Source of the DNA: Psammoneis japonica
Lineage: Eukaryota
Assembly: GCA_008632985.1 (NCBI GenBank)
Contig: QPGO01000094.1
Span: 168,721 to 232,720, forward strand
Direction of reading: 5' to 3'
DNA length: 64,000 bases
In this document: positions 13,195-38,440 of the stretch, piece after piece
How the letters are laid out: every line of letters begins with the position of its first letter
How positions within the stretch are numbered: position 1 is the stretch's first letter
The notes under the pieces: model-generated
Databases searched by the model: none
Told to the model about the DNA's origin: nothing
Seen by the model: the letters and a program-made list of their open reading frames with translations, nothing else
Position numbers and translations under genes: made by a program

Positions 13195-13761
13195 AGGGCC
13201 CTACGTAGAAGATGTACGAGGAGTGAGATGCTATACTGTCTGATTTCAGATTGTCTGTCCTACTCTACACTCTAGAGAGCAGCAGCAGCTACGAGAGCAA
13301 GGTTACCTTCATGAGATGGAGAAGAATGCAATGGAAAATGGAAACTTAAGCTGGTAGCTGGGTCAAGGATTTATGGTAGTCCTTGAGCTGGGTCATGTGC
13401 TTTTCGATTGATGGCACGCGCAGCATCTCATGCATGTGCTTTTGGCAGCTGGGCACTCTGCTGGCTGGACCAACATGGCTGTCCCCATTCGAAATGACAA
13501 CCATCGTGCACAATTCAAAAGGAATTTGTTTACAAAATGTGGGCACACATTCCTCAAGCAAAAGCTTGTGAGTCACTGACAATTTTGGCCAAGTGTGACA
13601 AAGTCCACAATCTTGAACTCTTCACTTGAATCTTTCAGAATCGAGTCCGTTCCATCAACGCACACCAGCTCACCCTCGACACCAATGTCCGCACCACCCG
13701 TGACCAACACCACATCGTGTTCCTTCAGTGGAATGATCGCCAATTCCCCTGCGTTTGCTGA
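13195..13761. repeat. Direct duplication, copy 1 (partner 46751-47298): intergenic DNA plus the SPT5 3' end
   Basis: Alignable by eye from AGGGCCCTACGTAGAAGATGTACGAG through GGTTACCTTCATGAGAT to CAATTCCCCTGCGTTTGCTGA. Confidence 0.95.
13566..13761 (-). pseudogene. Mutated copy of the SPT5 C-terminal coding segment
   Basis: GELAIIPLKEHDVVLVTGGADIGVEGELVCVDGTDSILKDSSEEFKIVDFV matches 47104-47298. One frameshift, and the stop codon TAA has become CAA. Confidence 0.93.
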
Positions 13762-14042
13762 CAGATGATGGGCCAAACATTTGCCAAAAAGGCCACAGTC
13801 CGGCACGCTGAAGTCATCCAAAGACATGGACGTCAGTCATTTTTCCGTTGAGACGACATGCCAGCCCATTTCTTGAACTTGAACTTGAGCCTGCAGCATG
13901 GCATTTGTGTGCTCGCAGTGAAGAACACCAGGTTCCCCTGTGCAGAAGATGCACCTTGGGTGCACCAGCACGCAGCGAGCATGAGGAGTGAGATGCTGTC
14001 TGTCTGTCTGTTGTGCTGCCGCACCAAGATCAGATTTGCACC

Positions 14043-17000
14043 TGCTCCATGCTCGAAGAACAAGCACAAACAAAAGTAGAACAAAGTGCAAAAAGTGGAA
14101 ATTTTGAGATTAAATTTCACTCTGTGATTTTTGGTTTCTCCAAATGAGCTCTCAAAGGCCCAGAGAGCTTCTGCACTGCTTCTGCAGACAAAAGGCCTTT
14201 CGGAGAATGTGGTCGTGACAACAGATTGTCCGGATGCGATTGCTGTTGACACGCAAGATGTCAACATCATCTGTTGATTTCATTTGCAATTTTTGACTTC
14301 CAGTCAACTCTGTGTGATTGTTCTGTCCTTTGCACGCATCCACGATTGTGGCACGATTGTCACACATGCAACGTGCAATTGCGCACATGTGTGCAACAGT
14401 TGTGTGCTGCACTCACCTCCCCAATTGTGCACAGGAGTCACTCATCAAGTGGAGTCATTTGATGGACATTGACAGTGTCAATGATGTCTCCACGTTGACT
14501 GCATTGTGCCATCAGCAATGACTGTCATTGTTCAATGAGCCAGCGCGGGGCTGCTCCAATTTTCGTGTGTCTTTCAAGAGTGTCACATTGTTTGTCTCTC
14601 ACACTCCATGTGCACACACATGTGGTGTCACATTGAGCATTCTCTCTGATGTCATTTTGTTGATGTGGACATGTTTTGATGCCTCAGTTGTCAAGAACCA
14701 ATTGCCCTGCTGTGGCTTTCATGGCATCAGCTGCACATTGTGGCGCTTTGCCCTGTGCTTGATGTGTGCTCTTGATTGTGGTGTTCACTTGCTTGTGGAT
14801 TTTGTGTGGCTCTGGTGGGCTTGCTTCATGTGCCACATTGCTCTGCTGCACTTCCATGCATCATGAGCAATTGGCGATGGTCAAGGACATTCTCTCAACC
14901 ATTTTGTCCTTGCAGTCCTGTGACGGCAATGAACTCCTTTTTTTGTTGCTTCAACCATCTTTTTCTTTGATTTCAATTGTCACTTGGACCTTTCTTTTTG
15001 ACATGTCGGCATCATTTTGTCATTCCCGAGGCACTGCTTTTGTGCACTGAGGATGCAAATGTCCATTTTTCTCATGTGTTTTGTTTTTGAATCTTTGGCA
15101 CATCTTGTGTGTCGACGTGACACATTTTTTATGTTGTGTCTTGCCTCACACATTTTACATTGCAACCGTGTCGGTGTTGTGAGATTGTCTTTTTTGCCAG
15201 TGTGAAGTGGGTGCATGTGATGTGCGCCAATCTGTCACTGTGATTTTCCAGCCATCTTTAATGTGATGATTTTGTCCTCACAACATGAGCATTTGTCGAT
15301 CTTGCTCACCTCCATGAAAAGTGTTCACATGATGTGTCGTGTCCAACAATTTAGAGGGAATGTCTTTGTTCCATTTTAACAGTTTGGGACATTGTCGCAG
15401 GATTCAATTTTGGACAGCAGTTTGGCTGATCACTTCTGCAACAATGTTTGCCTTGCCCATGAAAAAAGACATTCAGGGATGTTTCATTGCGTGTCAACAC
15501 ATGACTGCTGTGTTCATGGAGAACAGGCAATCTGCAATGTTTGCATCTGTTGGCCAAATGGCACATTCCGGAGCCTTTCAGGTTCTCAATTGTGAGCAGG
15601 AGTTCATTTTCTGTTGGGGTGCATTGTTTTTCATTGCCCTTTTTTGACATTCGGGTGACAAAACAATGCAGTTTTTAATGTGATGTGCTCCACATTTTTG
15701 GAGACTTTTTGTTCTGCACTTGTCCTTTTGCCATTTGACCTTCATTGAGGTGAATTTGGCTGTCAGTGCACAGGAGATTGTTGAGACTGCATGTCTTGAT
15801 GGCAGTGATGCTCATTGACAAGATGTCACAATGTTCTTTGCATTTTTTCTCAGTGTTGCAATTGCCTGAATCACCTCCATTTTCTTTGTGATCAAACACA
15901 TGTTGTTGCACATGAAAGTCTTGACAGTTTGTTTCAAGTTAAGCAGCAAAGGACTTTTTGTTGTCAACCTTCAAAGCAACTGCTCCAGTCACACAAGCAC
16001 CGTTTCAAGTTTTGTTGTGCAGGCGACATTTTGAAGCGACATTTTGTCAGGCACAAACAATCATTTGCAGTCATTCTGACAACTCCAAACCTGTTGTGAA
16101 TTCACTCATGTGTTGTGTGAAAATGTCTGGGGCTCTGCAGATTCTCATTGGAGGTCTGTGGTGCTCATTTTCCTTGGCGCCATTTTTGTGTGAGCATGAC
16201 GTGTGCTTTTTTATTTGACATGGTGGCATTCCATGTTTGAATCAAGTGAGATTGCATGCATGAAATGTTTTTGCTTCAACGGCATTTCCTGAATGTTGGG
16301 CAAAGGATGCACCATGTGTGCAAACCTTTTGTTGAGCTTCTGAGTGTTGGGCGAGGTCAAACTTGACCTGTTTTCTTTGGACAATGAGTCTCAGAGCAAC
16401 TTGTTCAGGGCAACTTCATTTTTAAGACTCCAATCTTTCACAATTGGTCAAATTCCTTTCAATTGGATGCCTCCAAAGACCACGACAGGAGAAGGTTCCC
16501 ATGCGATGTGGAACCACACCAGATTTTCAACGTGAGATCTGCTGGTTCTTCCCATTCATTTGTCTGAGGAACTTTTCAAAAGGGTTTCAAACCTCTTAAG
16601 AAGAAGATTGAGTTGGCTGCACTCTTTTGGGTTGGGTGTGTTGCTGCAGCTGTCACTTCATTGGAGTCAATGGTGTGATGACATGAGTCAAGGACCATTG
16701 GTCCCATCATTGACTCCATTCACAGCATTGTGTTTTTCAATGTGATCGGCAATCAGCTGGAAAACATTGGCATCAAAGAGTGTGTGTCAACATTCTTCAC
16801 AGGTGCAGTTGCTTCTCTTCCCACTTGATTTCTTCATTTGCATGGTCCAGTGTGATTCCAAGACTGGACATTGAGTCATGTTCCATGATCACATCATGTG
16901 GACTTGAAGAAGATTGGGTGTTGTCAACATGTGCCGTTGTTTGCATCATCACATGCTTGTCAGATTCAGGTGAAGAGAACCGCGCTGAGCAGCGACTGTC

Positions 17001-17340
17001 AGTTGTGAAGAGTCCACCCTTGGTTTCCCAAGTTTTGGTGGCGGATTTCTTCATTCCCAACTTCCACATGAATTTGCACAAAATTGTGGTTGATGATGTT
17101 CTTTGTCAAGAAGAACATGCAGAAGCTTGTTTTTTGCTTTTCTCAGAGAAGCAGCCACATGAACAGCGACGGAGGGACTGGCGCTCCTTGAGTGGTGCAA
17201 ATCTTTGATGGGAATTGATCGGGGGTCCATTTTTCCAAATTGATGGTTTTGTTCACCAAGCATTTTAGAGTCACAATTTTCACTCTTGTTTTTACGTTCC
17301 TTTGTCAAGGAACTCGCTTCAACTGTTTTTGTGAACTGCC
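14043..17340 (-). mobile_element. Old hypermutated Ty3/Gypsy LTR retrotransposon (3' LTR 14043-14411, pol relics); same family as 25717-30292
   Basis: LTR aligns to 25717-26083, with an adjacent PPT-like CTCACCTCCCC. Protease relic VLLD...WETKGGLFTT...HVD...HDVIMEHD.MSSLGITLD and RT relic HPLPNIQEM. Order is protease then RT toward the 3' LTR. 5' part truncated. Confidence 0.85.
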
Positions 17341-20300
17341 TGGGTCATCATGGAGCTCAGCTCCTCACCATCGTGTCTTTCTGGTGCTTTCTGCTTTTGA
17401 CAACATTGTGAATTGCCTTGTGGTTTCTGCACAATTTCACAACAATCAAATGTGGCATGGTTTGTGTGGGGGCCTGCAAGTGTCATTCAGTGACAGCACA
17501 GTTCACAGCTTGTGTCACGGTCAGCCATGCGACGCACATGCGGACAGACTGCACCTCGTGGAGAACAGCTCGTGCTGACTCAGTGGGGATGATGTCGAAG
17601 ACACCTCTGATGTTGCTGACGTGGATGGGTCATAGACCGTAGCAGCAGTGAGCCTCTAAAGCTCACAATGTCTTCACAAGACAGCTTGCCAAAATGTGCA
17701 CTTTGCTCACAAGACCTTTCTTGCCATGCTCGGTCTCCTTGGCGGCAGGTCAAGACAGCCCTGCCACAGCACTGCAACAGGGATGCAATGAAGGACTGTG
17801 CTGTTGTGCTTTCTGTTTTGCGCTGTTGTGCTGCAAGCACATGTTGTGATAAAAAGTGCACCAAAGCGTGCATCTTGCTCACTCCCCTTTTTTTGCCTTG
17901 CTTGGCATCTGTCTTGACAGCCACTCAAGATGGCCCCGATGACAGGCAGTGTTTTGCAGGATGATTGCAGCTTGCAAAATTTGGGGTGGAAACAAGGGCA
18001 GAGCTTGAGTGCTTGCTTTTGTGTGTCATTCTGCAATTTCACATGATGATGTGTGAAAGATTGCCAAATGTGCATTTTGAAAAAGCTCAAAAAGAAGGAA
18101 ACGAATCAAAAGAAACAACAACAGAGGTGGGCTGCAGGGTGGTTGTGTGTTCAGAGAAAGTTTGCATGATCCCACTGTTGCAAAGCTGGTGAAGGCATCA
18201 AGAACAAATCCAAACGTGTCGGTCAAGAATGGCCAGATGAAGACTTCATGGTGTGTTCAACTTGTTGGCAAAAAGAAGAAAACCAACAAGTCATTTGCAG
18301 TTTGCTCCTCCTGCTCTGTTGAATGAGCCACATTGCAAACTGTTTCGATTTTGGGATCTTGGCGTTGCCAGAATGTGCTCCCACTGTGCTTTGCTCTTGT
18401 GCTCTGCACTCTGTTGATTAAGCCACATTGTGAACTGCTCGATTTTTGGGCTTTTTGTGTCACCATGGTGTGCTCCTGCCATGGCTTTGTAGTTTGTTCT
18501 TGCCACTCTGTCAACTGAGCCGACTTTTGGGCTCTTGACATTGCACCATAAAATGCTCCCACCACAGCTTTGTGGTTCACTCTTGCCCTTCTGTTGATTG
18601 AGTCATGTTGCAAACTGTCTCAACTTTTGGGCTTTTGGTGTTGCCACAGCATTCACTTTCTCTAGTGTCAGGTGTCAAAATCACCCCCGGCATGAAACAC
18701 ATGACACGTCACTTGTTGCAAAGCCAGTTTCCCTTGAGAACTGTCCTGCAAGTGTTGGTCTCAAAAAGACCAGACGGAATTTCTCTTCCTTCTTGTTGTT
18801 GCCATGCTTTGTCCCGCAAAAGCAAATCTTGCACTCCTTGTCACTGCATGAGGCACTGATGCCATCCCTTGTCCGCAAAAGTTTGGACACACCATGATCC
18901 CTTGCAAGGGCGGCAGTCTTCCCACTCTTTCACAGTTGTTGTGACTGCACCAGTCAAGCCTCCACATGCTGCATGTTTTCTCAAGGATGTCTGCAGCAAG
19001 GGACCACACTCCAGGAAGAAGATTCAGAGACACCGAGCTCACTCACAACAGAAAGCCTGTTGTCAGAGGGCAAGACAATCCAAGCCCATCTGTGTTTGAC
19101 AGACATCTTGGAAGATTCCAGTTTGGGTCATCTTTTGAATCATGTTTTGATGTGATCAAAATGGATTTGTTTGCACTGGAGTTAGACAAAATGTGGAGTT
19201 TGCCAAAAGTTCTGGATGAGATTGCAGTGCTGGGATCACTTGGACAGATCAAAACAGGTTGCAGCTTGTTTGCCAGTGGCTTGCCCTGGTCGTTCAATGT
19301 TTGAATCCATGCTCTTCCAACCTGGGGTCATTCCACACTTTCTTCTTGTGTGGTCATTGATGACCACAATTTGTTGACATGGGGTCATTGCTGGCTGGAC
19401 TGTCAAGAAGAGCCAAAAAGCAAGGACCATTTCAAGGCCCCAATTCAATTGATTCCAACAGGATGGTGACAAAAAATGCAACAAACAGTGTGAGAAACAT
19501 TTTGACAGCAACTGCAGTGCAACAACATCGCACACAACACTGGCATTGGAGTGACTTGCCAGAAGATTTTGTGACCATTTCACTTTGGTTGTCACCCTTC
19601 TGAAATCACAGTCATTCACAAGACACACTCTTGTGCAGCTCAATGCAAGCATCTGTTGCACCATTTATGAGGGGGTGAGGCATGGGCTGTTGGCATTGTG
19701 TTGTGGTTGGTTGTCTTCTTGTGCTGGTGTCCTCTTGTGTTGCAAGTTTGAGGTTTTTGATCACAAGGAAATGGTCAGCCCAAGACAAGGAAGAAGGCAA
19801 GGAAAAATCTTTGTGCACCAAGATCTGACATGGAGTGCAAGCCCAAAAGCCAAGTGCCATTGTCACATGGAGCACAACTCACCATGACAGCCATCATCAA
19901 TGATGGACAATGCGGGTGGCCAGAGAAAGCTCAATGAGCTCCTCATTGACAAGTGCATCTGTTGAATGACTCTTCTCCCAACTTGAGCTTGTTGTGGACT
20001 CAACTGGAGAAAATGTGCTGGAAGAGAACAAGGGAGTGTTGTCTCCTGCTTGTTCTCAAGTCCTCAAGACTGTGGTGGTGCCCAAGGGAGTCTGCTTTGC
20101 TTGTTGAATTTGGTGTGTTGAAGTGTGTCAGCAGCTGCGGGCTCCAGACAAGTCGACCGCTTGATGAAATGATCATGTCAGTTGCAACTGTGCAGCAAAT
20201 TGTGATGACAATCAATTTTTCCTTGTCTGGTTTCCTTGTCATTCCTTGTCAAGGAAAGTCAGGGTCAAATGAGGAATCCTCTACAATCGAAAAACCTGTG

Positions 20301-20650
20301 CAGGTTGAAAAGAATTTTCCGGGTCATTGATGCAATCGTGAGTGTCATGTGGGTCTGGCCTTTGTGTTCCACCGTGCATTGTGACTGAGACTCATCGTCC
20401 AATCTCTCTTTGCCCAGTCTCAATTGCTTCCAAGTGGCAAAACATTTGACAAAAACCCAAATGCATGGCGATCAAAAACTGCTGTTTTTGAAAATGGTCT
20501 GTTGCTTGCTCGGGTCTTTTCTCTGCACACCCAAAGGAACCCGGGTGTCTCCATGCACAACTCCCGTGCTTCCTTCCCCATTTCAAAAACTCAGCACCCA
20601 GGTGAGTGACACCTGCTGGAAGCCTTTTCATGAGGTCACTGCCCCCTTTG
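17340..20650. other. Hypermutated unclassified repeat/TE relic DNA
   Basis: Near absence of TA and CG. No motif I can assign. Confidence 0.45.
18315..18635. repeat. Degenerate ~90-95 bp tandem repeat, 3-4 units
   Basis: Recurrent CTCTGTTGAwTrAGCCACATTGyrAACTG...TTTTGGG at ~18315, ~18409 and ~18590, plus a partial unit at ~18505. Confidence 0.7.
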
Positions 20651-20655
20651 CAAGT

Positions 20656-20968
20656 GGTGCTTCTGGTGCAGGGGGTCAGAGCTTGAGATGTGGTGCCCAT
20701 GGGGGTCATTGGGGGAAAGTGCACAAGTGCCTTTCTGTGTGAACTTGACACCATGCCATGTTGGGCACTTTTGAAAGCTCTTTTCTGACCTTGAACAAAG
20801 GCCAGCAGTGCAACTCTACATGTTCATGGTGCACAGCCACCCCACAACCACACATCCCACACAACACAACACACAACAAACAACACAAGTCACTTGTTGC
20901 AGCCAACACCAAGTGAGTCTGAGAACAGCAACAGAACCCCAGCCCACTGGATCAAAGGGGGCCAACCT
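20656..20968. repeat. ~315 bp dispersed direct repeat, copy 1 (partner 23890-24208)
   Basis: CAGGGGGTCAGAGC...GATGTGGTGCCCATGGGGGTCATTGGGGGAAAGTGCACAAG...CCCAGCCCACTGGATCA.AGGGGCCAACCT shared. Confidence 0.9.
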
Positions 20969-23190
20969 TTTCATCACCTTCTCAGGCACAAGAACAACAA
21001 GTTGCAAGATTTGTCTCAGTGCCCACACAGAGCAAGTGCTCTGCTGAACATGAGTCATTCTTGAAGCTCCGCAGAGCTGCTCTGCAGAGCACCTTTTAAT
21101 TGCCACCAGCCTGATTGCTCACAAGTGTTCTGTTGCTTCTCTGTTGCAGGAGAAACGGTTCAGTGATTGTCATTGTGCAGGATGCATTCATCTCAATCTG
21201 TTGCCAAGGGACATGGCAGAGCCCCCTCTTGTGTCCCCACACTTTGGAAAGGCAGCCAAGACCAAAACAAGGGGCAACACCAAGGAAGAGATCAAGGTTT
21301 CTGCCCTTTGGTCCAAGCTGACATGCCAAACTTGTGAAGCTTCACAAGCACTGCATTGACCTGATTGAGATGGAAAACAAAGGCAGTGCAGTGCTTGGGC
21401 CCATGAACCCATCCCTTGGTTGCCACTCCAGGAAGAAAGACGTGTGTGGAGAGCTCGCACACTCTGCTGGTGCAGCCAGTTTTCTGCAGACATTCCAAGC
21501 CAGACAGGATGTTAGAAACCAGAACACCATCTTTGACCATGTTGAAGGCACGCCAAGGATGGACAGGAAGAGTGGCAAAGCAGTCAATGGTTGGAACACC
21601 AAGATTTTTGACAACAACATTTGTGGCGGCTGCCCTCCTTTGATCTCTGACATTGTGACAGAAAAGCAAAAAGTGCACAACTTTGTTTCCTTTTTGTTCT
21701 TGCACATTCACGGCCACTCCAACAGCTGTTTGGATCTCATGGCTGCTGCCTTGCTCAGGTTTTACAACAAAATGACCAATGTGATCAAGAGCAAACCACA
21801 TGGCAAGTGGTCGGAAATTTCCACCCATCCCTTGGTGAGTGTGGTGACAGATGCTTGCAGAAGAGCAAACATGTCTGAGTGCACCTTTGACGCATTCCAG
21901 AAGCAGGTGGGAATCCATGTGACATTGGGCCCATGGAATTCTGTGTGCAAACTCTGCAGCAAAATTGTCAGGCAATGAAAATGTCAATGATCGCCAACAG
22001 AAAATGAGGCAATTTTGCGAATGCACAAACTCGTCCACGATTGAAGTGCATCATTTTTGCTCAGCCAGGTGCACTCATCAGACATTGAAGGATGCAACTG
22101 GTGCATTGTTGTTCCCATAAATTTGTCATGCAAAACATCTGGGGCTTCGCAAAACAGCAAGTCTGGACCAATTTTTTGGAATGTCACATGTGGAAATGTG
22201 TGTGTGAAACATGCAATGAATGACAAAAAACAATTGTGTCACACATCAGCACTGCAAGCTCCCACCCAGGGCTGGAACAAGTCCTTTCAGGCATGGCAGG
22301 TGGAGGTGCACAGTGGTTTCATTTCAAGGAATCTTCCTTCCCTGCCTCTCAACTGCCATCCTGACTTGCAAACCCAGCTGGTTGATTGCCAGGCCCTCAT
22401 TTCTGTGCATCAGCACAGGCAAGGATCATGGGTGGACTTCTTGGTGAGTTTCGAAAATGCTCTGCAGAGTTGCTCTGCAGAAGATGCTCTCTGAAACATT
22501 GAAACCTCATTGATCTTGGTTCATTTGCCCATGTTCTGCAACTGACAACACCAGGTTGAGAGAAGAGCTGAGTGCCCTGCGTGGCACCAGTGAGCAGGAG
22601 CTGAAGAGCAAGATGGACAGGGTGGTGGATTTGTTGCTGAATGGGGGTGGCGCTGAAGGCATTCCTGCTCCAGCAAATGAGCCAGTGACACGCGGTTGCA
22701 CACGACATGCTTGGCACACAATGGAGGTGACACCAAAGGCAAGAATCCAGCAGAAATGTTTTTTGATTGGTTTGCAATCTCCACAGTGGGTGCAAATTGT
22801 GCAAGGCTTCAACAACAGGCAAGGTGAGACAAGATGTGAAAAGTGCACTCAAGTGCCACAAGGCATTGATTGATGTGCTGCTTTGTCTTGGGGGAAGGCA
22901 CCCACAACCATGTCAAAACTCTGAAGTGCCAAGCCATTTGCAACATTGGGAAAATGAGCTTGGTCAGCTTGGCTGTGATGCACTTGAGTTGGCGAAGTCA
23001 TTCTTTGCAGCCAAAGGTGCTGACAAAGATGACATCACAAATGTCTTCTTGGCAAACAAGCGTCCCCTCCATCTGCAAAAGCCAGTCCCTTCCAGATGAC
23101 ACACCAGAGAACAGCCCTTTCCAAAAAAGGTCAAAAGTGGAAGCAAGAAGAAAAGGAGCAGCAATGTTCAAATTGGTGAACCCCAATCAG
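20969..23190 (+). mobile_element. Crypton-like tyrosine-recombinase element relic, copy A (5' truncated; ~370 bp insert at ~21910-22280)
   Basis: CHSRKK (HxxR-like motif)...DVRNQNTIFDHV (expected catalytic Tyr position). Colinear with 32800-35370. Confidence 0.7.
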
Positions 23191-26083: not shown

Positions 26084-29000
26084 TTCGCCTCCCTAATTGC
26101 ACATTAGAGTCATTTGTAAGTGGATTATTCGACGGACATCGACAGTGTCAATAATGTCTCCACTTTCACTGTATTGTGCCATTAGCAATGACTGTTGTTG
26201 TTTTGTATAGGCAATATAGGGCCGTTCCAATTTCCGAATGTCTTTTGAGAGTGACATTGTTTGTTTCTCACTTAATATGTATATATATAGTATTACGTCG
26301 AGTATTCTCATTGACGTTCTTGTTGATATGAACACAAGGACTAATTGTCCTGGAGTAAGTGTTTTTCCTGATATCGATTGTACATAGCATCGTGCCCAGT
26401 ACTTAATGTACGCTCTTAATTATGGCGTTCACTTACTTACTTGTGGATTTCATGTAGTTTGGCGGGCTTACTTTATATGCCATATTGCTCTGCTGCACTA
26501 CCACGTTTCATAAGTAATAATAAACGATGGTCAAAGATATTATGACCATTTCGTCTTGATAATCAATCCTGTGATGGTTATGAATTCCATTATGGATTTT
26601 TTTTTTTTGTACTTCAACCATCTATCAGTTGGATTTTAATCGTTATTTGGACGTTTCTTTCTGACATACCGGTGTTATTTTGTCATTCCGAAGGCACTGG
26701 TTTCGTGCACTAAGTGGATAAATGTCCATTTTTCTTTTCTTTTTTCTAGATCTTTGGCACATCTCGTGTGTCGACATGATGTATATTTTAATGTCTTGCC
26801 TCGTACATTGTACAATACAACCGTACGGGTGTTGTGAGATTGTCTTTTGCCAGTGTGAAGTGGATACGTATAATGTATACCAATCTGTCACTGTTTTTTC
26901 CTAAATCGTCCTTTAAAAAGGCGATTTTATCCTTGTGACATGAGCATTTTTCGATCTCGCTCGCCTCCACGAAAAGTGTTCGTATGATATGTCGCGTCCG
27001 ACAATTTGGAGGGTATGTCTTTATCCCGTTTTAACGGTAGGACATTGTCGTAGGATTCAATTTTCTATAGTAAGTCGGCTGATCGCGTCTATCGCGACGA
27101 TGTTCGCCTTGCCCTCGATGTATTTTATTTCGGGACTAGAATTCTGTATTCTAAGTCGTCAACGCATGACTTTGTCCGTTGTGTCTTATGATCCTTATAT
27201 GTATAAATCTGTTGGCCAAACAGTATATTTCGGAATTTTATAAGTGTTTTCACTATGGACAGAAGTTCTTTTTTCCGTTGTAACGTTTAATATTGAAATA
27301 CGTGTATGATAACAATATAGTTTTTGATTTGATACGCTCCATATTTTCGGAGACTTTTCGTTTCGTACTTGTACTTTTGCCGTTTGACCTTTATTGAGGT
27401 GGATTTGGCTAGAAATGTACAGGAGATCATTGAGACTACATGTCTTTATAGTAGTAACGTATATCGACAAGCTGTCGTAATATTCTTTACGTTTTGCTCA
27501 ATGTTGCGATTGCCGGAATCGCCTCCATTTTCTTTGTAATCGGATGTATACCGTTACGTATGGAAGTCTTGATAATTTTTTTCAAGTTAAGTAGTGAAGG
27601 ACTTTTGTTTTTAACCTTCTAAGCGACTGTTCTAGTCGTTTGAATGCCGTTTCAAGTTTTTCTTGTACAGGTGACATTTTGAAGTTATTTTCTGTCAGGT
27701 GTAAATGTTCATTCTTAGTCGTTCTGACAACTTTAAACCTGTCATGAGTTCGCTCATGTGTTGTATGAAAATATCTGGGGCTCTATAGATTCTCATTGGA
27801 AGTCTATAGTACTCAATTTCCCCCACGGCAATATTCTGAGGTGAGCACAACGTGTGCTTTTTTTGATTTTACATTGTGGTGTTCCATGTTTGAATCGTAA
27901 TTTCATTTTTAAATCTTCAATCTTTCATAATTGGTTAAATTCCTTTCAAATGGACGCCTCCAAAGACTATGATAGGAGAAGGTTCTCACACGTCGCGTAA
28001 TCGCGTCAGATTTTTCACGGTGAGATCCACTGGTTCTTCCTATTCATGTCCAATGAACTTTTTCAAAAGGATTTTAAACCTCATAAGAAGGAGACTGAGT
28101 GGTTTATCTTCTTTTGGTTTAGATGTATTGCTGTAGCTGTCACTTGATTAGAATCGACGGCGTGATAATGTGAGTCGAGAACCATCGGTCTCGTTATTAA
28201 CTCTATTCACTGTGTGATATTTTTCAATGTGATCGGTATTCAGCTGGAACATTTTGTATCGAAGAGTGCATCAACATTCTTCATAGGGTAATTGCTTCAT
28301 TCCCATTTGATTTCTTCAATTGCGTAGTCTAGTATGATTGCAAGACTGGACATTAAGTCGCGTCCCATGATCATATCATTCGACCTTGAAGGGTATTTGG
28401 TGTTATTGACATATACTGTTTGAATATCAGTAAGTCTTAAATTTCGCATAGTGAGAACTGAATTCGGTGTTTACTATCAGTCGTAAAGAGCTCACCCTTG
28501 GTTTCCCAAGTTTTTGGTGGCGGATTCTTGTGTTCTCAACTTTCGCACGAATTTGCGCAAAATTATGGTTGACGATGTTCCGTTATCGATAGGAACACGT
28601 AGATGCTTTTTTTTTTCTCCTTTCCCAAGGAAGTATTCATATAAATGATGACTCCTGGACTAGTATGAATTATTTCTGCCTTTTTTCTAGGCTTCCTAAT
28701 ATCCAGTAAAGCATATAATTCGTGAATAGACCAAAATTATTCTTCGGATTCAATCTGGATCATCCGATCAAATTGGTATTTTTCTTCACTGAGGGTATCA
28801 GAATCTGATTCTTTGCCCTTATGCTCTTTTTCTTTGTTCAAGGAACTCGCTTTGAGTGTTTTTTGAACCGCCTGATCAATCATGACGTTCATCTCTTTTT
28901 TTGCGAGCGGCATTTTCGTTATCGCGACGCGACCGCGTGCGATTGCCATTTGAACGGCGCATTTTTGGGTCTCTTTCAGAGTCACCCTTGCACTCTTTTG

Positions 29001-29925
29001 CTAGTTCATTTTTAGAATAGCTTCAATCCGTGATGTAGGTATTCTTTTTTCAAAGATAAGACCTTGCATTCACTTTGGATTGTTCTGGTACCATGTGAGA
29101 GACCATTTTTGGAACCAAATTTGGAACCTTTTTTATTTTGGAACCAACTGCGCTATCAGAGCCTGAGTTGATATGTTTTTTCGTCACGGACGTCATGAAC
29201 GACCTTTAGATGACTCAAAACTTAATCAGCTCATCAAGGATGAGTTGCAATAGTTGATTGTTTTGGACAGTAGACTGATGCTGCCATCCTTGCGGTGCGA
29301 GTGATAGCTGATAAATCAGCGCTCGGTTTCCCGCTAGATTCGACTTAGAATCCATCTGAGGGTCGTATAGACTCTCATCGTTGACCTCTTGGGTCTATCA
29401 GAGGCTTTCTTGCTGTTGAGCGGCTCTGGTTTCTTCAGGTCGTCTCGAAGATAATTTCCCTGATTCTGAAGTGCATTTCCTCGGAGGACATGAGTTATGA
29501 GACGCTTGAGGTACTTTCCAACGATTCCATCTTGCTCTTGGACTCGAGGATCATCGATTCGGTCTCAAAAAACTCTCCAATAGTCTCTCCTTGCATGGTA
29601 GACATATTTCTCGGATCTGATCGACTCGGAACTTGCATTTTCTGCAACCATGACTTGGTGTAGATTTTTTGATAATGCGGTGTACTTGAGAGCCCTTGAT
29701 CCTTGGGTGCTTGGAATAGACCGTATTAGAGCGAATCCTCTTGTTTGGTAGACGAAAAACAGCGTTCCATCTTGAGGTACTGCTCGGCTTGAGCTTCTTC
29801 CGCTCGGAAATCGATTCCAGCAGAACTGATGCGATTCGTTCCTGTTTATAGAAGAATTTGCAAAGGCACATTAGTTAAAATCTTCATTTTCCGTGCTTTT
29901 TACCTTCTGTGGTGTGTATACACAA

Positions 29926-30292
29926 TGCACTATGCTCGAAGAACGAGTGTAAACAAAAGTAGAATAGTGTACGAAAAGTGGAAATTATAAGATTGAATTT
30001 TGCTCTGTGATTTTTGGTTTCTCCGAACGAGTTCTCAATGGCCTAAAGCTTCTGTACTGCTTCTACAGACAAAAGGCCTTTCGGAGAATATATTCGTGAC
30101 AACAGATTATCCGGATACGATTGCCATTGACACGTAAGATGTCAACATCGTCAATCGATCGTATTTGCAATTCTCGACATCCGATCAACTCTGTGTGATC
30201 GTTCTGTCCTTTGTACGCATCCACGACTGTGGTACGATTGACATATAAATAATATATAATCATAAATATGTATATAACAGTCGCACACTGCA
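29926..30292 (-). repeat. 5' LTR
   Basis: TG...CA termini, followed by TSD CCTT. Confidence 0.95.
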
Positions 30293-32049
30293 CCTTGGTG
30301 GATTGTGCTGGTCTGGTGTTTGGTCAATTGCCATCATCCTGTCAAGCTGAGGCGCATGGTTTCCTTTCACTGATTCAGTTCTTCTGTTGTTTGATTGAGT
30401 TCTGCAAGATGTCAAAGTGTGAAGGAGTCAACAACTGGTGCGACAACAAGGCCTTGGTCCAAGTCCTTTCCAGACTGTCCCACACCAGCCACCCCTCCAT
30501 TGACCTGTTGGCACAAGAGCATTCTGATGGAGACTTTCATCTGCATCAGCATGATGCCAATGTTCTTTCTTCCGACTGGGATGTCATCAATGAAATGCAC
30601 CCAATGCTTGAAGTCATTTCTCAGGTTCTTAATCCCTCCTCCCCTGGTCAGGCTCCGTCAACAGCTTGGGCAAAAGGACACCAGGACAGACAGGCTCTGG
30701 TTGAAACCCTCCCACTCAATGCACAAGCAAACGTGCGTGCTGACAAGTTGGCAGGACAACACCAGGGACAATGCGACTCAGACACAATGGAGCTGATCCC
30801 CCTTCCCCATTGCCAATCATGCCTGAGCCTCACTGATGGAACGGTCACTGCAGGACTGAAATCTGTGGTCAGATGTGCTGCTGCAGCTCCCGCTCTGCTG
30901 GCATGTGTTTGGGAAAGGAACGACTGGGATGAATCGATCACAGAAAAGATTGACTTGAAGGTTCATGCAACATCAGTGTGCAGGCATTCCAAGAAACACG
31001 TTTCCACTGTGAAGCTCATCCATGAGCTCCTCCCAACAAACAAGATTGCTCATCGACACAACCCCGTTCAGCCACATCATTGTCTTGTGTGCGAATGCCC
31101 TGTGGAGGATCGAGACCATGTTCTGGGGTGTCCTGCCAATGAGGCCTGGCATCATAAATTCCTGCAAGGTCTGCGAAAATGCTGTGACAAAATTGATGCA
31201 ATGCCACCTCTTCGCGATCTGCTGTTGACTTCACTCAAAGCATGGCCAAGAGGTGAGATGCAGTGTGAATCTGACATCACCCTGATGTTGCGAGCACTGT
31301 GGAAAGCCCAGTCAGAGATGGGATGGTGACAAGAAGTGTTCAATGGAAGACACTCCACCCTTTGGAACGTTTTTCAGGAGATGCACCTTTGTAAGATGGG
31401 CCTGTTGGAGAAATGCAGGAAGGAGAATCGACCCCCTCCAGTTTGGGGAGTGCAGATGGGAACTCAAATTTGGAAGTCCTGGTGGGAACTGTGGGAAGAA
31501 CACAATGAAAAGGTTCACGGTCACAGTGCAGAGTCAAGGAAATCATCTTTGTGCTGTCAGGCAGAAGCCGAGCTCATGGCTGTTTACAACAGCAAATGAC
31601 AGGATTATTTGGCTAAAGGCAGAGAGGTGCTGATGGATTCAGTTGACGAACACATGTCCCACTCTACATTGTGGATCATGAATTGGGTTGCTGTGGTCAA
31701 ACCACGTCTAAAAGACAGCCTTAAGAAAGCGAAGCGCGAAGTGCTTCATGGCACTTGCTCAATCGCTGGCTGTTTTGGATGGGTGTCATCTCACGGTGAC
31801 ACCCCGTCCGGCTGATCCCAACAAGCTTCCGCCGCACTTAACAGTGCACTGGAAGTGTGGGCCAGCCAGCGCCAGCCTGGCTGGCAAAGGAGTGATGGCA
31901 CTTAAAACACAGATCTGGTTTTTTTTTGCTTTCTCATGCAATCCTCCAAGGACAAATGCTGCCCATTGTGATTTTGCTGGTTGGGAAGAATCCATGATTG
32001 TTGTGGAACAAGAGCAACAGTCACTGTTGGGCACTGTTTCCCTCAATGA

Positions 32050-35000
32050 CAGTGGTCAGCAGCTGACTTGGGAGGAAGCTGCGTGCTCAATGCTGCCCCA
32101 TTTCATGTGCGTTGCAACCACTGATCTGCAGAGCACCCCAATGGAGAATGGTGATTCTGCCTCAGCATGCACAAGTGATCATGGCACCTCTGGTTTGGTG
32201 CTTGCTCCCTGTGGTGAGCAGGGGGCTGAGGAGACAGAGAAAGACAAAAAGGAGAGAAAGTGCCTTGGTCACTTCAGGCGCCACTTGTTGCACTGCAGGA
32301 ACACACGTGTGGCCGCAGAAGATCTCCGCCATGAAGACATCACCCATGATCTCATGAAAGGGTTCACCAAGTGTCTTGCCAAGGATGCCAGGTTGCAGTT
32401 CAAACTGGAAGGGGACCATCTCTCTTTTGGATTGGCTGCAGGCTGTGCCAGCACTGCCAAGATGCATTTTGTGAACAAGTTCCCTGACTGTCCAACCCCG
32501 CCCACTCTGCAGGACTCAAAGTGGACCAGCACGCTCAATGGAATGAAGGGCATCATCTTGGATTGTTGCAGGATGGAAGGAACTGATGTTGTGAAACCCC
32601 ACAAAGCCTCAACTGAGGAAGACAGGGAGGCCTGTGCTGCTGTCTGCCTCCATGAAGGAGATTCGGAATCTGCCAAGTTTTGCTTTCATTCGGTGTCCAT
32701 GCAAGCCTGTGTTGGCCGGAGCACCAAAGTTGCTCTGTCACAGAAAGCCAATCTGTCTGTGGAGGTGCAGCACAAGGAGACACTCACCTGTCCTGTCATC
32801 ATTCATTGCCTTCTCAGGCACAAGAACAACAAGTTGCAAGATTTGTCTCAGCACCCGCACAGAGCAAGTGCTCTGCTGAACATGAGTTGTTCTTGAAGCT
32901 CTGCAGAGCTGCTCTGCAGAGCACCTTTTAATTGCAACCAGTCTGACTGCTCACCAGTGTTCCATTGCTTCTCTGTTGCAAGAGAAATGGCTCAGCAATT
33001 GTTGTTGTGCAGGATGCATTCATCTCATTCTGTTGCCAAGGGACATGGCAGATTCCCCTCTTGTGTTCCCATGCTTTGGAAAGGTGGCCAAGACCAAAAC
33101 AAGGGGCAACATCAAGGAAGAGAGCAAGGTCTCTGCCCTTTGGTCTGAGCTGTGTGCCAAACTTGTTGTGAAGCTTCGCGAGCATTGCATGACTTGATTG
33201 AGATGGAAAACGAAGGCCCGCCCATTTTTTTTCCCAAACGTCCATCATTTTTTTTTTGGCGGCAAGCCCAATGTTTGTGTTCAGACCTTCACACATTTTA
33301 TGACAAGCAATCAATGCTTGTGAGTTGTCGATCAATGAAGTTAAACATCCCAAAAATGCAAATGCTTTGTGTGTGTCAGATTGCATGGTGTGGACAACCC
33401 ACATGGAACAACACACCTGCAAACACAAATGTTTGACATTTCAAATTTTCCACAACTTCTCAAAATGCAACAACAATGGTGACTGCAAATGCAACACACT
33501 CCATCAACAACCACAAACTCACCATGGCACTGCCACATGTCAACAGCTTGTAATTCATTTCAAATGCATGTGCCTTGCTGTGCTTTGAAATTGATTCATT
33601 GCAGCAAAAACAGCTGAAATGTTCAATTTTCTGCCCATTGCTTTTCGACCACACACAAGTCAACAATGAGCTTGTTGCACTCTCACATGTCAATTGTGCT
33701 GCACACAAGTTGACAAGATGTGATGTGCTGTTGATTGTTGTGGCTCTTTGGGGCAATGCCATTGAGAAAATGGTGACCACAGAGTCACCATGGTGAGGTG
33801 GTTTTTGCGGTTTCCAGCTGCAGTGCACCAACGGTGAACTTGCACTGAATCTGAGTCATGCTTGTTGAGTTGGCATGGCTGCCGCTTTGCGCATCATGTG
33901 CCCACCATTCTCAGTGCTGGGGCTGGCAGCAAAAAAAAAAGGCAATTCACCAGGAAAAAAAAACAACTAAGAAATGAAGGCAAGCAGTGCAGTGCTTGGG
34001 CCCTTGAACCCATCCCTTGGTTGCCACTCTGGGAAGAAAGACATGTGCAGAGAGCTCACACTCTGCTGCAGCTGGTCTTTTGCAATGTTCTGAGCCGGCT
34101 GGGATGTTAGAAACCAGAACACCACCTTTGACTGTGTTGAAGGCATGCCAAGGATGGACAGGAGGAGTGGCAAAGCAGCCAATGGTTGGAACACCAAGAT
34201 TTTTGATGACAACATTTGTGGTGGCTGCTCTCCTTTGATCTCTGACATTGTGACAGAAAAGCAAAAAGTGCGCAACTTTGTTTGCTTTTGTTCTTGCACG
34301 TTTGCAGCTGCTCCAACAGCTGTTTGGATCTCCTGGCTGCTGCCTTGCTCAGGTTTTACAATGAAACAACCAATGTGATCAAGAGCAAACCACATGGCAA
34401 ATGGTTGGAAATTTTCACCCATCCCTTGGTGAGTGTGTTGACAGAAGCTTGCAGAAGGGCACACGTGTCCAAACGCACCTTTCAGACATGGCAGGTGGAG
34501 GTGCACAATGATTTCATTTCAAGGAATCTTCCTTCCCTGCCTCTCAACTGCCACCCTGACTTGCAAACCCAGCTGGTTGATTGCTGGACCCTAATTTCTG
34601 TGCATCAGGCACAACCAAGGATCATGGGTGGACTTCTTGGTGAGTTTTGAAAATGCTCTGTGGAGCAGCTCTGCAGAAGATGCTCTCCGGAGCATCAAAA
34701 CTGCACTGATCTTGGTTCACTCACCCACATGTTCTGCAGCTGACAATGCCAGGTTGAGAGAAGAACTGAGTGCCCTGCATGGCACCAGTGAACAGCTGAA
34801 CAGCAAGATGGACAGGGTGGTGGATTTGTTGCTGAATGGGGGCGGCGCTGAAGGCACCCCTGCTCCAGCAAATGAGCCAGTGACATGCAGTTGTGCATGA
34901 CATGCTTGGCACACAATGGAGGTGACACCAAAGGCAAGAATCTAGCAGAAATGTTTTTTGATTGGCTCCAGTGCAATCTCCACAGTGGGTGCAAATTGTG

Positions 35001-35370
35001 CAAGGCTTTGACAACAGGCAAGATGAGACAAGATGTGAAAAGTGCACTCAAGCACCACAAGGCATTGATTGATGTGCTGCTTTGTCTTGGGGAAGGCACC
35101 CACAACAGAGTCAAAACCCTGAAATGCCAAGCCATTTGCAACATTTGGAAAATGAGCTTGGTCAGCTTGGCTGTGATGCTCTTGAGTTGGCAAAGTTGTT
35201 CTTTGCAGCCAAAGGCACAACAAAGACATCACAAAGACCTTCTTGGCAAACAAGCACCCCTTCCATCTGCAAAAGCCAACCTCTTCCAGACAACACACCA
35301 CAGAACAGCTCTTTCCAAAAAGGTCAAAAGTGGAAGCAAGAGGAAAAGGAGCAGCAACGTGTTTCAATGA
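32050..35370 (+). mobile_element. Crypton-like tyrosine-recombinase element relic, copy B (insert at ~33210-33975)
   Basis: LSFGLAAGCASTAKMHF, VGRSTKVA (GRxxE-like first Arg), HSGKK, RAGWDVRNQNTTFDCV. Colinear with copy A. Confidence 0.7.
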
Positions 35371-38300
35371 GCAGTGATCACCTCCATTTTGTGGGGAAAA
35401 AACCATCAAATGATGAAGTGGATGGATGTGTTTCAATGATCATGTCTCTCCCTGAAACACTGTCATCCGAACAAACTCTTGGTGTCTTGCTTTCCTTTTC
35501 ATGCACAAGGAATTTGGTTCTGCTGTTCCTTTTCTCCAAAAATGTGATTTGAGAAAAAAGCCGTGAAGCTCATTTGTGGGTGCACGTGTTCAACAGTTGT
35601 TTCTCAAATCATGTTTTTGGAGAAAAGGAACAGCAGAAGCAAATTCCTCACATGCAAAAAGGGGAGCAAGACACTGATTAAATGTCCCCCCATGTGCCCA
35701 ACTCAGACAGTTTGCACGTTCAGTCAAAAAGACAAACAAAGGGGTCCTGGGCAGCCTTTCATCAGCTTCAGACCCTGGATTGCCCCCATGTGTGTTCAAC
35801 GGACACCTTTGCTTGAACACAGTGTCCAACAGGTGTCACAAAGCTGTTGGCACACAGGGACATTTAATCAAAAGATGAATGAAGGTTGGGGTCAGAGTCC
35901 CTGTGATGACCTTTCTTTGTGCAAACATCCTTGGAGCCATGTGCATGATGGACCACATCAGGTGGGATGCCATGCACGCAAGCAAGGGATGAAACACACT
36001 GTGACATCATCCAGTCAACAACAAACCCTGACAAATTGAGCAGCCAACTGGACTTGCGAGAGATGGCAGGAACCTTTCTCCTCCATGGAACTTTGTGTGG
36101 TGTTGCTCTCCCATTGGGCATCATCACATGTTGTTGTCAAAAGTGAAGGCAGTTTGTGGCAAGAGAACATGTCTTGGGACATGCAGGAAGCAGAGCCAAG
36201 CAGAGGCTTTCTTCTCCAGTGTCCCAACTTGACATGTCTCATGCTGCTTCCAAGGGATCTCGCCATGACCACCTTGGGGATGACTTTGACACAACCATTG
36301 CACTGCACACCAAAACAAAGGTTCTTCACAAGCAAAACAAGAGCCTTCAGAAACAACAAATGGACCAGCTCTCTTGTCCATTGTCACCAATGGTCAGGCA
36401 AAGAAGGAGCCAGACACTGAGACAACCCACAATGGCAAGATCTGCACTTGCAGCATGTTTGCAAGCCAAGACTTTGACTTGGAGTTAAATCAAGAATGCC
36501 CAAGAGACTGGTGGGTTGGAAGCTGAAAAAGGTCCCATTGCAAGCTGTTTGTTCCCATGGCAGCACAGCAGCGTGCTTTCAGCTGTGATGTCAAGAAGGG
36601 CCACAAATCATGCAACAGCTTGATGTCCTTTCTGAACTTTGGCACATGTCAGCAGACCATTTCTGCCACTGTTAACTGCCCACAGCTTGGCAGTGCTTCA
36701 TTCAACATCTGCTGGTGCAGTCTCCTCATCTTGCTCCCTTCAAGCAACCACATTGGCAGTGGCGGGAGGCAGCAATCTTCCCCATGCCCTTGACTGCCAT
36801 CCTGTCTCATGGCAGTGCACAACACACGCATCATGGCAGACCATGCTGCCATTGCTGTGGGCTTCCAAATGTCTGCCTTGATGGCACCACTTTTGTCAGC
36901 TGGTGTCAGCAGCACACATTTTGTCAGCATTCATTGGCATTGTTGCTTTCACAGCAACTCAAAGTCATGGCAGACACAAACTGACAACAAGTGGCAGAAG
37001 GGATGGCAGCCCTCAGCCATGCAGACCTGATGCCACTCTGCTCTGCCCTGCTTGCCAAGTGACTCTGCATCCAACACAACAAGCACTGACATCACTCTGT
37101 CTTCTTTTTTCACTTGAGCTCTCTTTTTCAACTGATCAACTAACTCGCAAAACCAAGCATCGCGGCTGTTCATTCTGGCGAGCACATGAACTTGACACAG
37201 TGGCAGACCAACCCAACATGATGCAAGCAGCAGCAAAAGGATTGGCCCTGTTGAGAATGGATGGCACTTTGCATCTGTCCAGGCAGACAGGTGCCACAGA
37301 TGCTGTGACACATTGGCGATGAGTTGCCGCAGGTTGGTTGGGGTGTCCGCAGCAGCGCAGGTTGCTTTCCACTGGCACTGGTGCCAGATGGTTCATGTGG
37401 ATGTGCACTGAAATGGACCCCAGCTGCTGGACTGTTTGCCTGTTGTGTGGCCCTTGTCACCTTTGTCACGTTGATTGTGTGGCACTGAAGTGTTCATTTC
37501 TCACCCTTTCTTGGAAGCCCCACATGTGTTGAGGCTGCTTCTGCTTCTGTTGTGGTGTGGACCGACTGACCAGCACAAGAAACTGACAACAATTCACAAT
37601 TTACAAGGAGCCGCTGCATGGCCATGTTGGGTGGTGCTGAAAAAGGATGCCCCCTCCTCCACAGCTGAGTGATTTGCCTCAAAGCCAACAACCAACCGCA
37701 CACTCAGGACCACAGACCAAAGTCAACACTGCAGAGGACAATCCACAAAGCTGCCAGCACCTTTTCATGGCTCTTTTGAGTGCTGCAGTGCAGCATTGGT
37801 GCATCAGCAGAACTGCAGAACTGGAGTTGTAGATGACAACACTGTCATGTGCACTCAGATCACAATGCAAACATGCTGCCAAATGCGCGAAATGCGCTGC
37901 GTGTGTGCTTTCTTGCCACTCTGCCGCGTGCACTTTGTGGGGTCTTGGCCAGGGTGGGGCCAGTTGGTTGTGCACATTTGGGTTCGATGTGGCCACCCAA
38001 CTTGGTGGTTGGTGCGAGCAGAAGTTTCAAAAAGCAAAAAACACGCGATGGTCAAAATGTTGTAAAATGACACAAAACAACAAACAATGAGAAGAAACCC
38101 AACTTTGCTTGGGAGTGCAGCACACAAACATTGTCCAATCACATTGATCTTCTCTGGCACAATGCCGGCAAGCAGATCAGTGAACAATGCTCGAGTTGCT
38201 CGCCATGGTGTTGTTGTGTGTTGCCGTCATGCTGCTGTTGCACGCGAAGGGCTGGGTTGCACATTGTCTTTTTCGGCAGCGGCAGATGTTTTGCCACATT

Positions 38301-38440
38301 CAATCTGCAAACATTTTGAGAAGTGCTTTGGGGCGACCCTTGAACGGCATGTTTCGGGGTGTCCCTCACTTTTTTGAATTTGGGCATGCATCTCTGCAAG
38401 ATCAAAGAAAGAGTTTGATGACATGTAAAAACCTTGAGAG
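35370..38440. other. Hypermutated unclassified relic DNA
   Basis: TA/CG depleted, with overlapping Cys/His-rich spurious ORFs. No assignable motif. Confidence 0.45.

Follow-up and report, generated by a model that had tools for sequence, protein, structure and literature searches.

TA-free islands in repeat DNA of the diatom Psammoneis japonica point to a regional mutation process acting at TpA

Organisation of the locus

The sequence analysed here is a window of 64,000 nt from the diatom Psammoneis japonica (contig QPGO01000094.1, positions 168,721-232,720; all coordinates below are window positions), in which three islands almost devoid of the dinucleotide TA stand beside DNA of ordinary composition. 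Comparison of island sequences with unmutated relatives indicates that TpA was changed there into CpA or TpG. The islands were dissected by self-comparison of the window, a Pfam scan of open reading frames (ORFs), exhaustive HMMER search and tblastn. The parts on which the analysis relies, namely the islands, a long interspersed nuclear element (LINE), a young and an old copy of a long terminal repeat (LTR)-type element, and Spt5 with a duplicated fragment of its 3' end, are the following:

13299-13836, minus strand: duplicated pseudogene fragment of the Spt5 3' end, with a KOW7_SPT5 match (E=1.1e-5), mutated only inside island 1
13390-25716, no strand: island 1, TA-free, CG-poor and CA/TG-rich, ending on the right where the young LTR element inserted
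14043-17151, plus strand: old mutated copy of the same LTR-element family, in island 1, 73-75% identical to the young copy in the self-comparison
20669-24207, no strand: repeats within the island; 20669-20968 recurs at 23903-24207, and a second copy of 20970-23167 lies at 32802-35360 in island 2
24380-25716, plus strand: upstream part of the LINE copy, 5'-truncated, of the APE endonuclease and reverse transcriptase type, broken by the young LTR insertion
25717-30292, plus strand: young LTR-type element of 4,576 bp, TA-normal and AT-rich, which splits the island and serves as unmutated reference
30293-31797, plus strand: remainder of the LINE copy, with its C-terminal region and 3' end
30293-38425, no strand: island 2, in which island 1 resumes past the young insertion, with continuity of the LINE across it
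45700-46900, no strand: island 3, a small TA-free domain next to the Spt5 3' end
46837-47293, minus strand: genuine Spt5 3' end with downstream DNA, the unmutated reference for the fragment

Composition and edges of the islands

Per-kb dinucleotide counts gave 1-7 TA in 14001-25000 (observed/expected ratio, o/e, 0.01-0.09), together with 4-22 CG (o/e 0.08-0.38), 95-130 CA and 104-138 TG (o/e 1.56-2.41), and 1-4 TA per kb were found in the windows of 32001-38000, as compared with 15-89 per kb in flanking windows (o/e 0.29-1.08). Pooled over 21,558 bp, the islands contain 76 TA (o/e 0.05), 304 CG (0.24), 2400 CA (1.83) and 2462 TG (1.78), while 37,302 bp of pooled flanks contain 1455 TA (0.59), 2187 CG (0.99), 2732 CA (1.14) and 2566 TG (1.13). 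From the flank frequency, 841 TA would be expected in the islands in place of the 76 observed (Poisson log10 P of about -254). The GC content of the islands is 0.481, so that they are not AT-rich.

The island boundaries are sharp at 100-bp resolution, with 0-2 TA per 100 bp within and 4-15 beyond. The edges lie at about 13,390, at 25,716 and 30,293 (where the young insertion ends), at about 38,425, at about 45,700 and at about 46,820-46,915, the depletion of island 3 invading the DNA downstream of Spt5 over some 70-80 bp. Several kb of the flanks that appear noncoding retain TA (o/e 0.74-1.08), as does the young LTR element. The initial annotation had placed TA-free islands, lower in TA than their flanks, at 13.4-25.7, 30.3-38.4 and 45.7-46.9 kb; the depletion was recovered and these limits proved right to within about 100 bp.

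Across 13.3-38.5 kb the window also contains 81 ORFs of at least 100 aa, overlapping, on both strands and rich in Cys, His, Gln and Trp. These are spurious, long ORFs arising in the islands because TA-free DNA holds neither TAA or TAG stops nor Tyr codons.

Content of the islands

The view that every affected stretch open to identification is transposable element (TE) or duplicated DNA, also taken from the initial annotation, held for the LINE, the old LTR-type copy, the Spt5 fragment and the island-to-island duplicates, whereas the remaining stretches (about 17-24 kb, 32-38 kb and island 3) are unclassified. No TE was recognised by Pfam among 176 ORFs of at least 70 aa, save for one weak zf-RVT match; a KOW7 remnant was also seen. 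In a public sequencing run (X1), depth summed at 80% likeness or more was above single-copy depth in every island bin and, judging by depth, the unclassified island sequence is repeated in the genome. Short tandem-like repeats occupy 18315-18646 in island 1, where 18327-18460 and 18502-18641 are 72% identical.

The LINE copy was delineated with an intact homologue (P0121), whose amino acids 654-1074 align to 24416-25729 (tblastn, E=4e-52) and whose amino acids 1070-1560 align to 30295-31797 (E=4e-79). The copy runs on across the young LTR insertion at 25717-30292, and this continuity implies that islands 1 and 2 were once a single domain, later split by the young element. The exhaustive HMMER search with the island ORF at 30301-31326 returned 1004 homologues (best E=6e-54), which are proteins of 1,200-1,950 aa with Exo_endo_phos and RVT_1 domains, the ORF aligning to their C-terminal part; a word-index search with the same ORF had given no homologue of near length. 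None of the top 150 representatives is free of Tyr, the minimum being 3 Tyr in 388 aa.

The young LTR-type element has two LTRs of 367 bp (25717-26083 and 29926-30292) that are 99.2% identical, termini TG..CA and a 4-bp target duplication, CCTT. Its TA o/e is 0.76, its CG o/e 1.19 and its GC content 0.39 over 4,576 bp, and no coding capacity was recognised in it by Pfam. A summed depth of 6,000-15,000 in run X1, as against about 60 for a single copy, suggests a very high copy number. The element is probably a non-autonomous LTR retroelement, active now or recently.

Direction, strand and sequence context of the changes

The polarity of the changes was established by three independent tests, which used the LTR-element pair, the Spt5 fragment against the gene, and the LINE copy against its homologues. 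In the alignment of the old and young LTR elements (2851 columns, 77.6% identity, young copy as reference), the 205 TA of the young copy correspond in the old copy to 78 CA and 77 TG, with 8 kept as TA, and its 127 CG correspond to 47 TG and 42 CA, with 26 kept as CG. In strand-folded counts, T>C was found at 167 of 404 TpA (0.413) as compared with 0.075 at TpC, 0.114 at TpG and 0.100 at TpT, and C>T at 92 of 252 CpG (0.365) as compared with 0.074-0.114 in other contexts, the value of 0.196 for C>T at TpC by 5' neighbour being confounded by CpG. GC is 0.435 in the old copy versus 0.377 in the young one. Background divergence of the pair is 15%, and the TA rate of about ten times background is a lower bound, the sites being saturated. 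Within the young element itself, the three differences between the LTRs all fall at TA or CG (two TA<->CA and one CG<->CA), the two at TA being the sole hint of recent activity.

The Spt5 comparison gave the same direction at a much lower divergence. The segment 13299-13756 duplicates 46837-47293 with 89% identity, and the true gene carries KOW7_SPT5 (E=3.4e-8) in 47104-47664 and the other Spt5 domains in 48203-51005, all on the minus strand. Relative to the real gene, the portion of the fragment within island 1 has 13 of 14 TA mutated (7 to CA and 6 to TG), as against 4 of 18 CG (TA versus CG, P=8e-5) and 12 of 274 background sites (4.4%), which places the TA rate at about 29 times background, as a lower bound, and at about ten times the rate of CpG decay. 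The first 90 bp or so of the duplicate are unmutated, and mutation extends from about 13,400 rightward. The original 3' end, for its part, is mutated only over roughly 70-80 bp beside island 3 and intact beyond; in 46837-46915, three sites read TG, CA and GC where the island-1 fragment keeps TA. Since the fragment is mutated only within the domain and the edge reaches past the TE, the behaviour is that of a domain and extends beyond TE sequence. Furthermore, the sparing of the original Spt5 while its duplicate was mutated, and that of the high-copy young element, indicate that duplication is not the trigger.

The third test compared the LINE copy with 11 intact homologues. Tyr is kept in only 1 of 14 columns in which it is conserved (at least 60% Tyr), and the 13 lost residues became His in 5 cases (CAY), Cys in 4 (TGY) and others in 4, so that 9 of 13 are His or Cys, whereas 186 of 266 other conserved residues are kept (P=3e-6 versus Tyr). 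Conserved Arg codons of the CGN type became CAR, CAY, TGG or TGY (Gln, His, Trp or Cys), the pattern left by CpG decay, and the four in-frame stops inside the copy are all TGA. The single conserved Tyr codon that remains is TAC at 31585; it lies at the start of the LINE 3' end (31585-31903), where about 320 bp hold 8 TA and where CG is above that of the rest of the island.

The outcomes are symmetric between strands, with CA:TG ratios of 78:77 in the LTR pair and 7:6 in the Spt5 fragment. No clustering by strand was detected among the 155 outcomes along the element (69 runs versus 78.5 expected, z=-1.53), a test that is uninformative at saturation. In four pairs of island duplicates, no class of discordance outnumbers CA<->TG (10, 13, 10 and 7 sites), a pattern implying independent hits after duplication.

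The TA that survive are of a particular kind. Among the 76 in the islands, 44 are YTAR (25 of them TTAA) and none is RTAY, when YTAR makes up 15.9% and RTAY 33% of the 1766 TA of unmutated window DNA. In the polarised pairs, TA was likewise retained at 1 of 86 RTAY versus 4 of 30 YTAR sites (P=0.016), and at 4 of 15 TTAA versus 2 of 127 VTAB sites (P=0.001).

These comparisons bear out most of what the initial annotation had proposed, namely T:A->C:G transitions specifically at TpA on both strands (78 CA to 77 TG, and 7 to 6), an enrichment of T>C at TpA by dinucleotide context (0.413 versus 0.075-0.114), and a direction opposite to that of repeat-induced point mutation (RIP), within sharply bounded domains. 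They also agree with its view that CpG->TpG/CpA decay is present as a separate process, on the evidence of the Spt5 fragment and of the environmental copies described below.

The signature in environmental contigs

A scan of metagenomes with a 4-sequence alignment of the LINE C-terminal domain yielded 80 loci, none of which has DNA similarity to the window. Their TA o/e is continuous from 0.06 to 0.89 and is 0.25 or lower in 12 of the 80, with CG at 0.26-0.54 and CA/TG at 1.5-1.75; two of these 12 (L015 and L016) are near-identical. The signature occurs in several unrelated metagenome assemblies, and several contigs show sharp internal edges, depleted domains lying beside normal or AT-rich DNA (among them L080, 1-2250; L018, 1001-2250; L037, 1-3300). 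L018 and L080 share 97% identity along 2.2 kb and represent the same mutated locus in two assemblies. On L037, an ORF of normal composition next to the depleted domain has named homologues that are all from diatoms, the best being Seminavis robusta at 61%. The only Pfam matches on the environmental contigs were zf-MYND and RVT_1.

Site patterns were followed in one family, L003 and its relatives, represented by 17 non-redundant copies, at the 60 sites with TA in at least two copies. All three states TA, CA and TG occur at 30 of them, TA and TG at 13, TA and CA at 11, and 3 do not vary. As a control, sites that are CA or TG were examined, and there the depleted copies almost never show TA. The spectrum of private changes in this family is underpowered, comprising only 21 TpA half-site columns with recurrent hits excluded. 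The loss of TA per copy ranges from 12% to 100% in the 17 copies, and from 12% to 83% in a close subfamily of 13, in which it is correlated neither with transversion divergence (rho -0.23, P=0.44) nor with CG loss (rho 0.06). CG loss, on the other hand, follows divergence over all 17 copies (rho 0.61, P=0.01). The loss of TpA is therefore specific to copies or loci and separable from CpG decay. The survivors in depleted 1-kb blocks of environmental DNA show the same context as in the window, YTAR accounting for 58 of 102 (versus 16.8%) and RTAY for 2 of 102 (versus 28%).

Sequencing data and the possibility of an artefact

Run X1, from one public study, carries 87% of the 31-mers sampled. Contigs built from it are identical to 14829-15732, 17654-18512 and 19972-20715 (904, 859 and 744 bp, 0 differences), and one over 24165-24690 shows 2 differences. 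The k-mer depth of the island contigs is 69-77, compared with 60 in a flanking gene, and such exact 31-mer contigs at single-copy depth imply accurate reads whose calls are unaffected by base modification. Among the variants listed, those near single-copy depth are CG/TG differences. Raw reads from an independent platform that showed TA at these sites would, for the initial annotation, have pointed to an artefact; in X1, a run whose platform is not on record, the TA-free sequence was reproduced at single-copy depth.

Discussion

Taken together, the polarised comparisons, the strand symmetry, the motif preference and the sharp edges suggest a real, post-integration, regional and TpA-specific mutation process of the kind reported in the chlorarachniophyte Bigelowiella natans, a reading to which we assign a probability of roughly 0.8, the identity of the enzyme not being covered by this figure. 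In this reading the islands are old, inactive repeat DNA comprising the 5'-truncated LINE, the LTR-type element, unclassified repeats and the captured Spt5 fragment. After integration, a regional process acting on DNA turned T:A into C:G at TpA, RTAY being the most susceptible context and YTAR the least, at about 30 times background and ten times CpG decay, with a parallel and independent CpG->TpG/CpA decay. The island domain would be silenced, CG-methylated chromatin. The process is presumably enzymatic, targeted and identical in kind to the TpA hypermutation of B. natans, and it could plausibly serve in defence, mobile or foreign DNA being inactivated through the loss of Tyr and other TA-containing codons and through sequence change at most TA sites in each copy.

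Hypermutation directed at TpA has a precedent in a preprint on mutation-accumulation lines of B. natans (Mettrop et al., bioRxiv 10.64898/2026.01.13.699255), so that the mutator cannot be called undescribed, as it was in the initial annotation. According to the available text of the preprint, 231 of 302 nuclear single-nucleotide mutations fell in two regions, an integrated nucleocytoplasmic large DNA virus (NCLDV) and a virophage. Of the 231, 230 were A->G or T->C, and each of these 230 lies on TpA, with rates of about 6e-7 in those regions versus 3.5e-10 elsewhere and only some lines affected. The B. natans genome was found to contain 124 clusters depleted in TpA and enriched in CpA and TpG, in which reverse transcriptase and DDE domains are enriched; the events were called from Illumina NovaSeq data, and an ADAT2-like DNA adenine deaminase was proposed, the Discussion citing the preference of ADAR for a 5' U before the edited A. 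CpG, diatoms and TTAA are not mentioned in the text available. A search of the literature, with most subscription journals outside its coverage, yielded no TpA->TpG/CpA hypermutation beyond this preprint, and none for diatoms.

As far as the available preprint text allows the two systems to be compared, they agree in that nearly all changes are A:T->G:C at TpA, with TpG or CpA as the product depending on the strand, that these fall in discrete regions of foreign or mobile origin and exceed background, by a per-generation rate there and by a relative divergence here, that the effect is heterogeneous (some lines there and some copies here, copies standing as a proxy for lines) and that clusters depleted in TpA and enriched in CpA and TpG remain. 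They differ in host, B. natans being a rhizarian and P. japonica a stramenopile, and in target, viral insertions there and a LINE, an LTR-type element, unclassified repeats and a host-gene fragment here, where no viral genes were seen in the islands. Depletion is saturated in P. japonica (o/e 0.05) and stands at 0.45 in the NCLDV region; CpG depletion accompanies it here and is absent from the B. natans text, as are the preference for RTAY over YTAR and the reach into adjoining DNA. In B. natans, moreover, the events were seen de novo, per generation, whereas here the process is known from sequence divergence only. What is new here is therefore the diatom host, the saturation, the RTAY motif, the reach beyond TE borders and the independence from CpG decay.

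RIP in ascomycete fungi resembles the present case in its context-specific transitions on both strands of repeats, in its sharp compositional islands and in its leakage into adjacent DNA. However, RIP changes C to T mainly at CpA, by which TpA is created and GC lowered, whereas here TpA is destroyed, CpA and TpG are made and GC is raised; duplication, moreover, is insufficient here, given that the process spared the 3' end of Spt5 itself as well as the young element with its many copies. Deamination of 5-methylcytosine would account for the CG->TG/CA changes that these islands also carry (89 of 127 CG in the LTR pair) but not for the loss of TA; CpG decay is about ten times slower in the Spt5 fragment and tracks the age of copies, which TA loss in the environmental family does not. 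The available text of PMC9998398 describes diatom TEs as CG-methylated through DNMT5a, and many diatoms as carrying DNMT4, a relative of RID, the enzyme of RIP. With animal ADAR and APOBEC the process shares clusters of context-biased transitions that inactivate mobile or viral sequence, driven in those systems by enzymes; these act on RNA or single-stranded cDNA, before integration and with strand asymmetry, whereas here the changes are post-integration, strand-symmetric and include DNA that is not of retroelement origin. The contexts of APOBEC (C->T at TC and CC) are not enriched.

Several points weigh against this interpretation or narrow it. The term hypermutation denotes here divergence ratios obtained from 14 and 205 TA sites, and not per-generation rates or de novo events. 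The abundant young LTR element is essentially unmutated, which fits its youth and equally fits an escape from targeting; the targeting to silenced chromatin is itself putative. A prediction of strand choice from asymmetric contexts was right in direction and not significant (P=0.17). X1 represents one sample of one study and is possibly the source of the assembly itself, its platform not being on record. The assignment of environmental loci to diatoms comes from one contig (L037), and several heavily mutated copies share most outcomes (L022 and L015, 20 same and 3 different), so that these are not independent events; other pairs of depleted copies gave 8 same versus 7 different, and this mixed sharing implies that inheritance and independent events both occur. 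Finally, adenine deamination and thymine modification are inseparable by sequence because TA is its own reverse complement.

With respect to the chemistry, the most likely route, if a tentative one, is that adenine in T-A-Y on either strand is deaminated to inosine, which is then read as G. This fits the proposal published for B. natans, and it also fits the U that invariably precedes the edited A in tRNA substrates of TadA/ADAT enzymes. Less probable, although worth retaining, is the same phenomenon with a TET/JBP-type dioxygenase oxidising T at R-T-A to 5-hydroxymethyluracil (5hmU) or 5-formyluracil, which would pair with G and give T->C. Uracils substituted at position 5 do mispair with G, and the equal CA:TG ratio and palindromic RTAY are equally compatible with an enzyme centred on a pyrimidine and with one centred on a purine. 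From the available text of PMC11572971, a dinoflagellate TET/JBP homologue makes 5hmU that is enriched on repeats and silences TEs, and early work quoted in PMC11071213 located 5hmU chiefly in TA and TC contexts, although that paper itself, in the text available, reports no 5hmU sequence preference in Breviolum. In the LTR pair, moreover, T>C shows no excess at TpC (0.075), and one literature search, with no wider one made, gave no evidence for 5hmU in diatoms.

Explanations that dispense with a targeted process on DNA were given far less weight. A genome-wide TpA->TpG/CpA bias acting over a great age, with genes keeping TA by selection, would agree with the TA o/e of about 0.59 already found in flanking genes and with the age of heavily depleted sequences (15% background divergence in the LTR pair), but it is made very unlikely by the loss of 13 of 14 TA in the Spt5 fragment at merely 4.4% background divergence, by edges sharp within 100 bp beside noncoding-looking flanks and a young element that keep TA, and by the environmental copies, TA losses of 12-83% in the close subfamily being uncorrelated with transversion divergence while CG loss over all 17 copies tracks divergence. 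Still harder to sustain is a mechanism at the RNA level, in which an ADAR-like activity would edit A to I in TE transcripts or double-stranded RNA and reverse transcription would fix the changes ahead of integration: a host-gene fragment is mutated, solely over its in-island part, the depletion runs on downstream of Spt5, strands are hit equally (78:77), duplicates carry CA and TG independently and the LTRs of one element differ at TA, all of which outweighs the fit of A->G after a 5' U to the preference of ADAR and the fact that two of the identified elements are retroelements. Modified bases cause systematic transition miscalls on some long-read platforms, and an artefact of this kind in heterochromatin, due to miscalling of 5mC and of an A or T modified at TpA while the real DNA kept TA and CG, could yield a CA:TG split of about 50:50 from strand-specific miscalls. 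This is highly improbable as well, considering that the exact 31-mer contigs of X1, with 0 differences at the depth of a flanking gene, imply low-error reads, that island copies also bear transversions and indels befitting real age, and that the same signature occurs in unrelated metagenome assemblies and, by the available preprint text, in NovaSeq-called events of B. natans. The least probable explanation is selection or biased conversion, in which UpA/TpA would be avoided as a nuclease target, a stop or a TATA-like site, or repeats would undergo GC-biased gene conversion. Most genomes are indeed short of TA, and a GC of 0.481 does not make the islands AT-rich; yet the sequences are dead, with four in-frame TGA and destroyed Tyr codons in the LINE, the loss is 96% complete and specific to tetranucleotide context, and T>C outside TpA (0.075-0.114) equals C>T outside CpG (0.074-0.114), when GC-biased conversion would raise T>C everywhere.

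A broader reading of the TpA process, conceivable but on balance doubtful, is that of an ancient genome defence common to stramenopiles, alveolates and rhizarians (SAR), guided by chromatin or small RNA and directed at RTAY by a DNA-acting enzyme class new to eukaryote defence (a TadA/ADAT-like deaminase or a thymine dioxygenase), standing beside CpG methylation, independent of it, and forming the mirror image of RIP. If this joint reading applies, the process would have been seen so far in one rhizarian and at least two diatom lineages, and diatoms, which can be transformed and edited with CRISPR, would make the enzyme accessible to genetics.

Localised mutators that cripple mobile DNA are known in fungi (RIP) and animals (APOBEC and ADAR), one directed at TpA appearing otherwise only in the 2026 chlorarachniophyte preprint. 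The signature, saturated in the transposon graveyards of a diatom and present again in environmental contigs, at least one of them from a diatom, suggests a widespread process that has long been at work in organisms contributing a large share of ocean primary production. The mechanism is constrained to be post-integration, on DNA, strand-symmetric, RTAY-preferring, effective beyond TE borders and separable from CpG decay. In practice, TA-free islands confound TE annotation and gene prediction through their lack of Tyr codons and of TAA/TAG stops and their long spurious ORFs, and they distort both the divergence dating of TE copies and composition-based tests for foreign DNA.

Other features of the window

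The genes flanking the islands code for Spt5, a NUBPL-type ATPase, an NF-YB-like histone fold, an F-box/cytochrome b5 protein and a bromodomain protein. Every named homologue of the NUBPL-type protein comes from a diatom, and its best match is only 68% identical. The flanking genes are normal, as the initial annotation had held, with TA at 0.59 and CG at 0.99 of expectation in the flanks.

Between islands 2 and 3, at 38955-43014 on the plus strand, lie three collinear long ORFs (387, 388 and 522 aa) for which no Pfam match was obtained and which may form one large low-complexity gene. This segment has an AT skew of +0.21 to +0.29 (A over T), a TA o/e of 0.29-0.35 and normal CG. Further along, a direct repeat of about 130 bp (57353-57476 and 57973-58103, 76% identical) flanks the end of a 1212-aa ORF that contains an RRM.

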